64,000 nt of DNA, taken from Escherichia coli (GTDB taxonomy: Bacteria; Pseudomonadota; Gammaproteobacteria; Enterobacterales; Enterobacteriaceae). The stretch is from the NCBI RefSeq assembly GCF_051903065.1, contig NZ_CP178438.1; one strand, written 5' to 3'. The notes under the pieces were generated by a model that saw nothing but the letters and a program-made list of their open reading frames with translations, was not told the DNA's origin and ran no database searches. Every line of letters begins with the position of its first letter. Position 1 is the stretch's first letter. The translations under genes were made by a program, and so were the position numbers. Below, piece by piece: positions 59,749-60,899 of the stretch.

Positions 59749-60621
59749 ATGGATGCACCGAGTACTACACCGCATGACGCGGTATTTAAACAATTTTTAA
59801 TGCATGCGGAGACGGCTCGCGACTTTCTGGAGATACATTTGCCAGTGGAATTACGCGAACTTTGTGACCTCAACACGCTTCATTTAGAGTCGGGGAGTTT
59901 CATTGAAGAGAGCCTGAAAGGACACAGCACGGACGTGCTCTATTCCGTGCAAATGCAGGGCAATCCCGGTTATCTGCATGTAGTGATTGAACATCAAAGC
60001 AAGCCAGATCAGAAAATGGCTTTTCGCATGATGCGTTATTCTATTGCCGCCATGCACCGGCATCTGGAGGCTGACCACGATAAGCTGCCGCTGGTGGTGC
60101 CGATACTGTTTTATCAGGGCGAGGCCACACCTTATCCGCTCTCAATGTGCTGGTTTGATATGTTTTACTCGCCTGAGCTGGCGCGACGCGTCTATAACAG
60201 TCCTTTCCCGCTGGTGGATATCACCATCACACCGGATGACGAAATCATGCAACATCGGCGGATTGCGATTCTCGAACTACTGCAAAAACATATTCGCCAG
60301 CGCGACTTAATGTTATTGCTGGAGCAACTGGTCACGCTGATTGACGAAGGGTACACTAGCGGAAGTCAGTTAGTTGCCATGCAAAACTATATGCTGCAAC
60401 GCGGTCATACTGAACAAGCGGATTTGTTTTACGGTGTGTTGAGAGACAGGGAAACGGGAGGGGAGTCTATGATGACGCTGGCGCAGTGGTTTGAAGAGAG
60501 GGGAAGACAGGAGGAAAGGCAAGAATTCGTCCTGCGTCTTCTGAATAAAGGAATGTCTCGGGAAGACGTTGCAGAGATGGCAAATTTACCCCTTGCCGAG
60601 ATTGATAAGCTGATTAACTAA
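59749..60621 (+). CDS. rpnC: Recombination-promoting nuclease RpnC (YadD; YhgA-like PD-(D/E)xK nuclease) with a type-A C-terminal tail
   Basis: 290-aa ORF; N-terminal region with YhgA-like/transposase_31-type nuclease motifs; here 10 codons shorter than the 300 aa I recall for K-12 YadD and ending with a different tail. Confidence 0.85.
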   Translation: MDAPSTTPHDAVFKQFLMHAETARDFLEIHLPVELRELCDLNTLHLESGSFIEESLKGHSTDVLYSVQMQGNPGYLHVVIEHQSKPDQKMAFRMMRYSIAAMHRHLEADHDKLPLVVPILFYQGEATPYPLSMCWFDMFYSPELARRVYNSPFPLVDITITPDDEIMQHRRIAILELLQKHIRQRDLMLLLEQLVTLIDEGYTSGSQLVAMQNYMLQRGHTEQADLFYGVLRDRETGGESMMTLAQWFEERGRQEERQEFVLRLLNKGMSREDVAEMANLPLAEIDKLIN

Positions 60622-60689
60622 GTTGTCTGCATCATCAGTTATAGCCAGATAATTGTTATTGTTAACTGACCAGATAATTAAGGGAACCT

Positions 60690-60899
60690 ATGGAAATAAA
60701 GACACGGAGAGAAACCAGGCAGACGTTGGCGCAGTGGTTTGAAGAGAAGGGATTTCAGAAGGGATATCAAGAGGAACTCCAGAAGGTAAGACAGGAATTC
60801 GCCCAGCGTTTTCTAAGTAAAGGGATGTCTCGGGAAGACGTTGCAGAGGTGACAACTTTACCTCTTACAGAGATTGATAAGCTAATTAACTCTAACTAA
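60690..60899 (+). CDS. Free-standing ORF encoding a second, diverged copy of the Rpn C-terminal tail module (type B)
   Basis: 69-codon ORF with ATG at 60690 preceded by AGGGA; product aligns with the last 50 aa of the adjacent RpnC (TLAQWFEE...GMSREDVAE...LP..EIDKLIN) with a 8-aa internal insertion; homology also visible at DNA level. Confidence 0.5.
   Translation: MEIKTRRETRQTLAQWFEEKGFQKGYQEELQKVRQEFAQRFLSKGMSREDVAEVTTLPLTEIDKLINSN

Follow-up and report, generated by a model that had tools for sequence, protein, structure and literature searches.

Rpn proteins are widespread toxic nucleases that defend against phage and are restrained by an antitoxin lying within their own gene. The rpn genes have been characterised as toxin-antitoxin defence genes, in which the C-terminal domain is also made from an internal start as the antitoxin RpnS, and RpnS proteins block RpnL (Zhong et al., 2023; PMC10400941). 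The first helix of RpnS varies between strains by 4-amino-acid repeats, and the crystal structure of RpnA_S revealed a three-helix fold in which this first helix is long (PMC10400941). The internal initiation site of K-12 rpnC was shown experimentally and its small protein was detected (PMC10400941). Neutralisation depends on repeat register: one added repeat on RpnC_S or on RpnC_L alone abolishes it, a rule tested solely by adding one KGIE unit to K-12 RpnC (Fig. 4D, PMC10400941). In some strains a further small gene derived from RpnC, named rpnC_Ss, lies directly downstream of rpnC and before panC (Zhong et al., 2023; PNAS 120:e2307382120; PMC10400941; Fig. 2I). Deletion and fusion to the rpn body were described as ways in which it is lost, and it arose independently of ypaA/rpnE_Ss, whose product YpaA could be detected in K-12 with an SPA tag (PMC10400941). 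A literature search found no later paper on rpnC_Ss.

The window analysed here, a 64-kb stretch of Escherichia coli DNA, contains the E. coli locus panD-rpnC-panC. An earlier note on this DNA placed rpnC, a 68-bp spacer and a 69-codon ORF at 60690-60899, all of which hold on re-check, and treated the ORF as possibly new. The feature is real, ordinary for the Rpn family and already known, since rpnC_Ss, including its loss by fusion, was described by Zhong et al. (2023). Taken as a whole, the sequence comparisons make it probable that the ORF is rpnC_Ss, an old tandem duplicate that is co-transcribed with rpnC, recombines with it and is likely non-cognate. The features of the locus are as follows.

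59749-60621, plus strand: rpnC (RpnC_L), an ORF of 290 aa with a PD-(D/E)XK-type Rpn/YhgA nuclease body and the C-terminal tail A
60456-60465, plus strand: Shine-Dalgarno sequence (SD) GGGAGGGGAG for the internal rpnC_S start, with a strong anti-SD duplex
60469-60621, plus strand: frame of the intragenic antitoxin rpnC_S (MMTLAQWFEE...LIN, 50 aa), the same residues as tail A of RpnC_L
60474-60619, plus strand: duplicated tail DNA, copy 1, from direct-repeat families D1 and D2 and alignment
60480-60499, partner 60728-60747, plus strand: 20-nt block GGCGCAGTGGTTTGAAGAGA, identical in both copies, crossover site of the fusion allele
60553-60576, partner 60825-60848, plus strand: 24-nt block ATGTCTCGGGAAGACGTTGCAGAG, identical in both copies, likely crossover zone of the L010-type fusion
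60622-60689, plus strand: AT-rich spacer of 68 bp between the rpnC stop and rpnC_Ss
60690-60899, plus strand: rpnC_Ss, 69 aa, free-standing RpnC_S paralogue, from ORF and homology
60722-60891, plus strand: duplicated tail DNA, copy 2, from alignment and direct repeats
about 60930-60951 and about 60960-60990, unstranded: two hairpins forming a shared terminator region between rpnC_Ss and the convergent panC
60995-61846, minus strand: panC, the convergent neighbour and right border of the locus

The 290-aa RpnC ends in MMTLAQWFEERGRQEERQEFVLRLLNKGMSREDVAEMANLPLAEIDKLIN. Its residues 7-207 match model positions 1-201 of 203 of PF04754 (Transposase_31, E 3.8e-87), and its TIGR01784 score of 267.2 bits against a cutoff of 52.1 places it among the Rpn/YhgA-like nucleases. 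A sequence identical to the window's rpnC is annotated rpnC by PGAP. Ahead of the C-terminal domain lies an internal in-frame start with a ribosome-binding site, in the same context as in K-12: GGGAGGGGAG lies ahead of the ATG ATG at 60469/60472 and forms an anti-SD duplex of -10.8 kcal/mol, and only 1.6% of the ATGs in the window reach -8 kcal/mol. The label RpnC_S in the window denotes homology to the K-12 gene with its detected small product. PADLOC gave no match for RpnC and for Ss only a marginal match to RmrA (E 5e-4).

The downstream ORF closely resembles tail A. BLASTP found 38/56 identities (68%, E 1e-23), positions 213-273 of TIGR01784 match rpnC_Ss with E 2.8e-8, and the DNA forms two direct repeats, one of 51 nt at 80% (60474-60524 and 60722-60772) and one of 112 nt at 85% (60508-60619 and 60780-60891). 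The blocks GGCGCAGTGGTTTGAAGAGA and ATGTCTCGGGAAGACGTTGCAGAG, perfect over 20 nt and 24 nt, occur exactly twice each in the 64-kb window, and two matches were seen in 0/100 shuffles. The ORF had been described as encoding the C-terminal module of RpnC a second time in diverged form and as sharing near-identical DNA with the first copy, and hence as a separately encoded copy of the tail that serves as the intragenic antitoxin; these comparisons bear out both statements. Two antisense ORFs on the minus strand, at 60467-60583 and 60688-60855, are mirror images of the repeats and lack support.

Detectable homology between the copies starts at GACG(C/T)TGGCGCAG, the start of TLAQWFEE, and runs to the coding end, and the approximately 14 nt after the rpnC stop look like the post-stop flank of single-tail alleles. 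No more than chance similarity links the spacer and the N-terminus of Ss to the part of rpnC that precedes the S start (361/500 shuffles score equally). The junction, comprising about 50 nt of spacer, the SD, the ATG and 11 codons, was found at no other location in 5426 E. coli genomes, by which a second genomic source for it within these genomes is excluded. rpnC_Ss probably arose when the 3' end of rpnC was duplicated in tandem. As the homology begins only at TLAQWFEE, copy 2 would be devoid of the strong SD of rpnC_S and use a new, modest one; in other words, it appears to have lost the original internal start and to have gained a new ATG, a modest SD and 11 N-terminal codons. The resulting frame consists of the new 11-residue N-terminus MEIKTRRETRQ, a variable helix segment of 24 residues and a C-terminal helix-turn-helix (HTH).

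The expression signals of this frame are modest. The SD of rpnC_Ss reaches -5.3 kcal/mol, a weak to modest value that 16.5% of random ATGs match and that is similar to the strength of the rpnC_L signal. The start signals, ATG and TAAGGGAAC(C/A)T, are kept across 14 distinct nucleotide alleles. The spacer carries CCAGATAATT twice (60645-60654 and 60670-60679) and the SD-like TAAGGG at 60679-60684. No terminator was found in 60622-60689, where the RNA is unstructured (fold z = +1.45), and a terminator or RNA structure there was rejected. A promoter for Ss inside the spacer was likewise rejected, with nothing passing the consensus scan and a manual look giving weak hexamers only. Since the spacer holds neither a terminator nor a good promoter, rpnC_Ss is probably co-transcribed with rpnC/rpnC_S. 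Translation at a moderate level would then yield a small protein with a long helix and an HTH, predicted to dimerise through its repeat-bearing helix as RpnS proteins do. Downstream, the region 60930-60990 holds a minus-strand terminator-like site and the inverted repeat I1 (fold z = -2.83), and the window's ORF list has no ORF between rpnC_Ss and panC. An Rfam search of 60300-61100 gave nothing besides a chance-level match to the fluoride riboswitch (E 0.46).

Comparison with K-12 clarifies the relation between the one-copy and two-copy forms. In K-12, a strain for which profiling data exist, RpnC has 300 aa and is followed by 73 bp to panC with no downstream ORF; the locus spans 1081 bp there and 1351 bp here, so the earlier note's figures of a 300-aa protein and a locus about 270 bp shorter were correct. 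The coding tail of K-12 is nearer to copy 1 than to copy 2, both in the HTH (69/73 vs 66/73) and in the helix (83% vs 74%), and its 3' flank alone matches the flank following Ss (56/58). From this combination, K-12 appears to lack the junction plus copy 2 relative to the two-copy form. The proposal that the first 242 residues plus the type-B tail give 300 aa is right as arithmetic, and such an allele exists elsewhere; as a description of K-12 it fails, and the same closeness of the coding tail to copy 1 contradicts the suggestion that K-12 acquired a type-B tail through loss of tail A.

Prevalence was assessed with the spacer and the start of Ss (60619-60735) as query against 5426 complete E. 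coli genomes. The sequence is present in 1555 of these (29%), always on the chromosome and normally in single copy, and 1553 of the 1555 carriers share at least 95% identity with it; the remaining 71% are without rpnC_Ss. The spacer sequence is unique to the rpnC locus. Plasmid-borne Ss was considered and rejected, as the records labelled "plasmid" are mostly very large (0.4-4.9 Mb) and carry the chromosomal rpnC gene, and at least three have the size of a chromosome. An Ss protein identical to that of the window is found in 11038 blocks of a large assembly collection and adjoins a 290-aa RpnC in all ten places listed. K-12 and most other E. coli strains have a single tail.

Beyond E. coli, E. 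marmotae and a cryptic clade (Escherichia sp. E4930-type strains) also carry two copies at this position. One tail is found at the locus in E. albertii, E. whittamii, Escherichia sp. E1V33 and Escherichia sp. MOD1-EC7003, each taken as one genome per species representative. The simplest history would be a single-tail ancestor, one old tandem duplication within Escherichia and repeated loss since, which we infer only, because each outgroup is one genome. An old tandem duplication is more likely than the earlier alternative, in which an incoming tail displaced the ancestral one downstream, given that the four outgroups are single-tailed and that E. marmotae and the clade strains share the two-copy form. 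The Ss copy is a common, old and maintained polymorphism of Escherichia and no oddity of one strain.

The two copies have also exchanged sequence. When the expected junction between the RpnC body and an Ss-type helix was built and searched in complete genomes, it was found as one uninterrupted 112-nt piece with 100% identity in two of them. In L065 (strain AHM8C212RI), RpnC has 300 aa, made up of the body and the exact type-B tail, and no Ss is left. A 248-bp interval is deleted in this allele, sequence specific to copy 1 ends just 5' of the 20-nt block, and the crossover falls inside that identical block. The exact fusion protein occurs in 245 collection blocks and therefore represents a lineage and no assembly artefact. 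A second type of fusion, in L010, joins the S helix to the C-terminus of Ss. Conversely, Ss alleles with S-type helices are present in L038, L041, L050 and L076, a pattern that indicates gene conversion in the direction opposite to the fusions. The copies recombine through the identical 20-nt and, probably, 24-nt blocks to give fusion alleles, in which nuclease and intragenic antitoxin both bear the Ss-type tail, and gene conversion places S-type helices in Ss. Such natural fusions bear out the expectation that the locus is polymorphic through recombination between the repeats, and L065, with its whole type-B tail, and L010 speak for the suggested reservoir for tail switching.

The copies also differ in the first helix. 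The segment between WFEE and KGMSREDV has 16 residues in RpnC_L and RpnC_S of the window versus 24 in Ss, and the helix sequences differ as well (KGFQKGYQEELQKV vs RGRQEE). Ss variants are 59 to 77 aa long and differ from one another by units such as FQKG and VRQE, so that Ss varies between strains in the 4-amino-acid repeats of its first helix, as RpnS does. Its homology to the Rpn C-terminal domain and its place directly downstream of rpnC and before panC agree with the published descriptions, and by homology, repeat behaviour and position the window ORF is assigned to the RpnS/RpnSs class. An AF2 model of Ss, of moderate confidence (pLDDT 70), predicts helices at 13-20, 26-43, 48-55 and 59-67, that is, a long helix broken at the KG repeats and then a two-helix HTH-like end. 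Foldseek with this model found no PDB match with E <1, and two PDB sequence searches with Ss did not retrieve RpnA_S.

Several explanations for the downstream copy have to be weighed against the preferred reading. That Ss is a non-functional pseudogene left by the duplication, as the earlier note allowed in calling it a decaying remnant, would accord with its absence from 71% of genomes, its weak SD, the lack of a promoter of its own and the PGAP flag "pseudogene, missing N-terminus" in Nissle 1917 and in L002, a genome that matches the window exactly. This flag arises because the ORF is compared against full-length Rpn proteins; the flagged ORFs are full length, and PGAP calls on intact Ss otherwise vary among "transposase", "hypothetical protein" and "RpnC/YadD family protein". 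Among 15 loci picked by DNA similarity, independently of intact proteins, 14 carry an intact Ss ORF and the 15th is interrupted by an IS3 insertion; the frame is open in 14/14 distinct nucleotide alleles. ORF, ATG and SD are intact in E. coli, E. marmotae and the cryptic clade despite 12-20% synonymous divergence, and every length change is in frame. The dN/dS of Ss is 0.32 in the N-terminal part and 0.46 in the HTH part, as against 0.46 for the RpnC tail and 0.04 for the nuclease body (first 240 codons), values that for Ss come from segments of only 19-24 codons and in which an appearance of purifying selection could also stem from gene conversion with the S copy, itself under selection. With values of 0.3-0.5 and 14 of 15 DNA-selected loci intact, decay is very unlikely. 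A different proposal is that Ss serves as a back-up cognate antitoxin that neutralises the adjacent RpnC_L and raises the antitoxin dose. Its homology to RpnC_S and its probable place in the same transcription unit, judged from the unstructured spacer without terminator, favour this, as does the precedent of YpaA/RpnE_Ss, an analogous protein made in K-12, and of RpnS blocking RpnL (PMC10400941). The register of the helix argues the other way. The S and Ss helices are equal in length in 0/21 distinct haplotypes, S varies from 16 to 56 residues on unchanged Ss alleles, so that Ss does not track S length, and the helix sequence differs too; K-12 YpaA is likewise one unit off RpnE_S. A mismatch of a single 4-aa repeat abolishes neutralisation of RpnC_L (PMC10400941), and, with 24 against 16 residues here and no match in 21 haplotypes, a simple back-up role is unlikely.

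The zero matches have to be read against an expectation of 1.13 under random pairing (P = 0.26): they represent a lack of co-variation between S and Ss, and statistical avoidance of register matching is not demonstrable from them. Clearly, no selection holds Ss in register with the resident tail. A last explanation, drawn by analogy from the earlier note's comparison with polymorphic toxins, takes Ss as a displaced orphan like the toxin tips of Rhs and CDI loci, kept for toxin diversification. In Rhs and CDI systems, the toxin is the variable C-terminal module itself, with a cognate immunity gene downstream of it. The architecture does correspond, in that a variable C-terminal module with a displaced, promoterless-looking downstream copy follows a conserved 5' homology block for recombination (TLAQWFEE), and fusions that swap tails by recombination exist. 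The defining features do not. At rpnC, it is the conserved N-terminal nuclease (PF04754, dN/dS 0.04) that is toxic and not the variable tail, which is the antitoxin/dimerisation (oligomerisation) domain of an intracellular toxin-antitoxin defence nuclease (PMC10400941) rather than a delivered toxin tip. The module has no immunity gene after it, the swaps seen are deletions in which the spare copy is lost, and Ss is a complete small ORF with its own start codon. A polymorphic-toxin locus of this kind is therefore hardly credible.

Under the preferred reading, Ss probably fails to neutralise the resident RpnC_L in register, and it may be regarded as a non-cognate antitoxin paralogue that stores another tail specificity, not as a redundant inhibitor. 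Its demonstrable effect would be evolutionary, namely the supply of an alternative tail by recombination. More tentatively, and in our view somewhat improbably, downstream RpnSs copies may be deliberately non-cognate, either as a store of alternative specificity or as antitoxins against non-self RpnC variants. This idea draws on the 0/21 haplotypes, the absence of co-variation, the one-unit offset of rpnE/ypaA and the natural fusions. If specificity were stored in this way, a single recombination would install a new tail on toxin and antitoxin at once, and deliberately non-cognate RpnSs would add an unrecognised layer to diversification in this defence family. The spare downstream tail bears in any case on diversification of the toxin-antitoxin interface.

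Among known systems, a close counterpart outside rpnC is ypaA (rpnE_Ss) of K-12, which is also a tandem duplicate of an Rpn tail and a free-standing small gene directly after an rpn gene. YpaA and the resident RpnE_S are one 4-aa unit (KLEG) apart, so ypaA is out of register as well. The two genes differ in how they begin: the start of ypaA comes about 13 nt past the rpnE stop, with the original S context retained (KERL-MTIAERL, SD AAGGAG), whereas rpnC_Ss is set off by a 68-bp spacer and begins at a new start codon with 11 new residues. The free-standing RpnS-like genes (DUF4351 PF14261 / HTH_Rpn_C PF27070) are, like Ss, small separate homologues of the Rpn C-terminus. Precomputed weak PF27070 matches exist on several rpnC_Ss variants; a Pfam-A scan of the window's own Ss gave no significant match, and the RpnC tail gave DUF4351 alone (E 0.04).

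Compared with the published rpnC_Ss, the copy in the window shows no difference in kind, and the value of the present analysis is confirmatory because the feature had already been published. It goes beyond the main text of PMC10400941 in the 29% prevalence, the occurrence in E. marmotae and the four single-tail outgroups, as well as in the exact crossover blocks, the absence of S/Ss register matching and a junction without another source. Prevalence and age, crossover blocks at base resolution, the inconsistency of PGAP calls and an Ss that is never in register with the resident tail are thus what is added here to the description of this gene.

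The 68-bp spacer that separates rpnC from rpnC_Ss, the free-standing second tail copy, contains CCAGATAATT twice, 25 bp apart (window 60645-60679). In one allele group (loci L041, L042 and L057), in which rpnC_Ss has a variant N-terminus, MDITARRETRQ, the spacer is 43 nt long and holds a single CCAGATAATT unit. Comparison of this single-unit spacer with the two-unit spacer of the window indicates a small internal duplication or deletion within the spacer itself.

Intact copies of rpnC_Ss are labelled differently by PGAP from genome to genome, including as a 'hypothetical protein' pseudogene ('missing N-terminus'), 'transposase', 'hypothetical protein' and 'RpnC/YadD family protein'. 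Each ORF given the pseudogene flag is of full length, with an ATG. Annotated examples are as follows:

L002:2521-2700, corresponding to window 60720-60899 (identical)
L076:1187-1354, in Nissle 1917

The only disrupted rpnC_Ss observed was that of E. coli isolate AF10, which carries the following element:

L053:1718-2872, IS3-family element in the 5' end of rpnC_Ss

In four other loci (L030, L038, L047 and L051; three Logan assemblies and one draft NCBI genome) rpnC_Ss is intact and the nuclease body of rpnC is broken, being called as two genes. Sequencing errors may be the source of these splits, since panC is split as well in L038.

The 4.3-kb contig CALXDF010000219.1 (L054), binned under an 'uncultured Oscillospiraceae' MAG, has rpnC_Ss and panC together with an rpnC tail of the E. 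coli type; it probably derives from Escherichia through misbinning or contamination. Three plasmid-collection records of 4.8-4.9 Mb (matches H121, H123 and H129) are in fact chromosomes of E. coli entered as plasmids, and they explain several apparent 'plasmid' matches of rpnC_Ss. Because the remaining ones are also large E. coli records with rpnC, none of the plasmid-collection matches looks to be a genuinely plasmid-borne rpnC_Ss.

In several single-tail alleles, which lack rpnC_Ss, the terminator hairpin is separated from panC by an unrelated insert of ~130-220 bp, with shorter and longer versions depending on the allele:

L004:2452-2743, insert-bearing locus
L008:2446-2744, insert-bearing locus
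L012:2470-2690, insert-bearing locus
L055, insert-bearing locus of E. albertii
L062, insert-bearing locus of Escherichia sp. E1V33

The insert, which the window lacks, resembles a small intergenic repeat element of the ERIC/IRU-like kind. Elsewhere in the window, Rfam gathering-level matches comprise PssrA, STnc40, two copies of the REP-derived naRNA4, and tp2, at 18122-18211, 23858-23927, 24331-24524 and 35799-35912. No tRNA genes were found in the window, the remainder of which looks like an ordinary E. coli chromosomal stretch.

An independent tail copy, ypaA (rpnE_Ss), follows rpnE in K-12 W3110:

L066:21575-22672, rpnE-ypaA

There, ypaA, a pseudogene according to PGAP, starts ~13 nt past the rpnE stop and retains the duplicated KERLMTIAERL context, and its product is RpnE_S with a single extra 4-aa unit (…WQEG-KLEG-LHEQ… versus …WQEG-MHEQ…).
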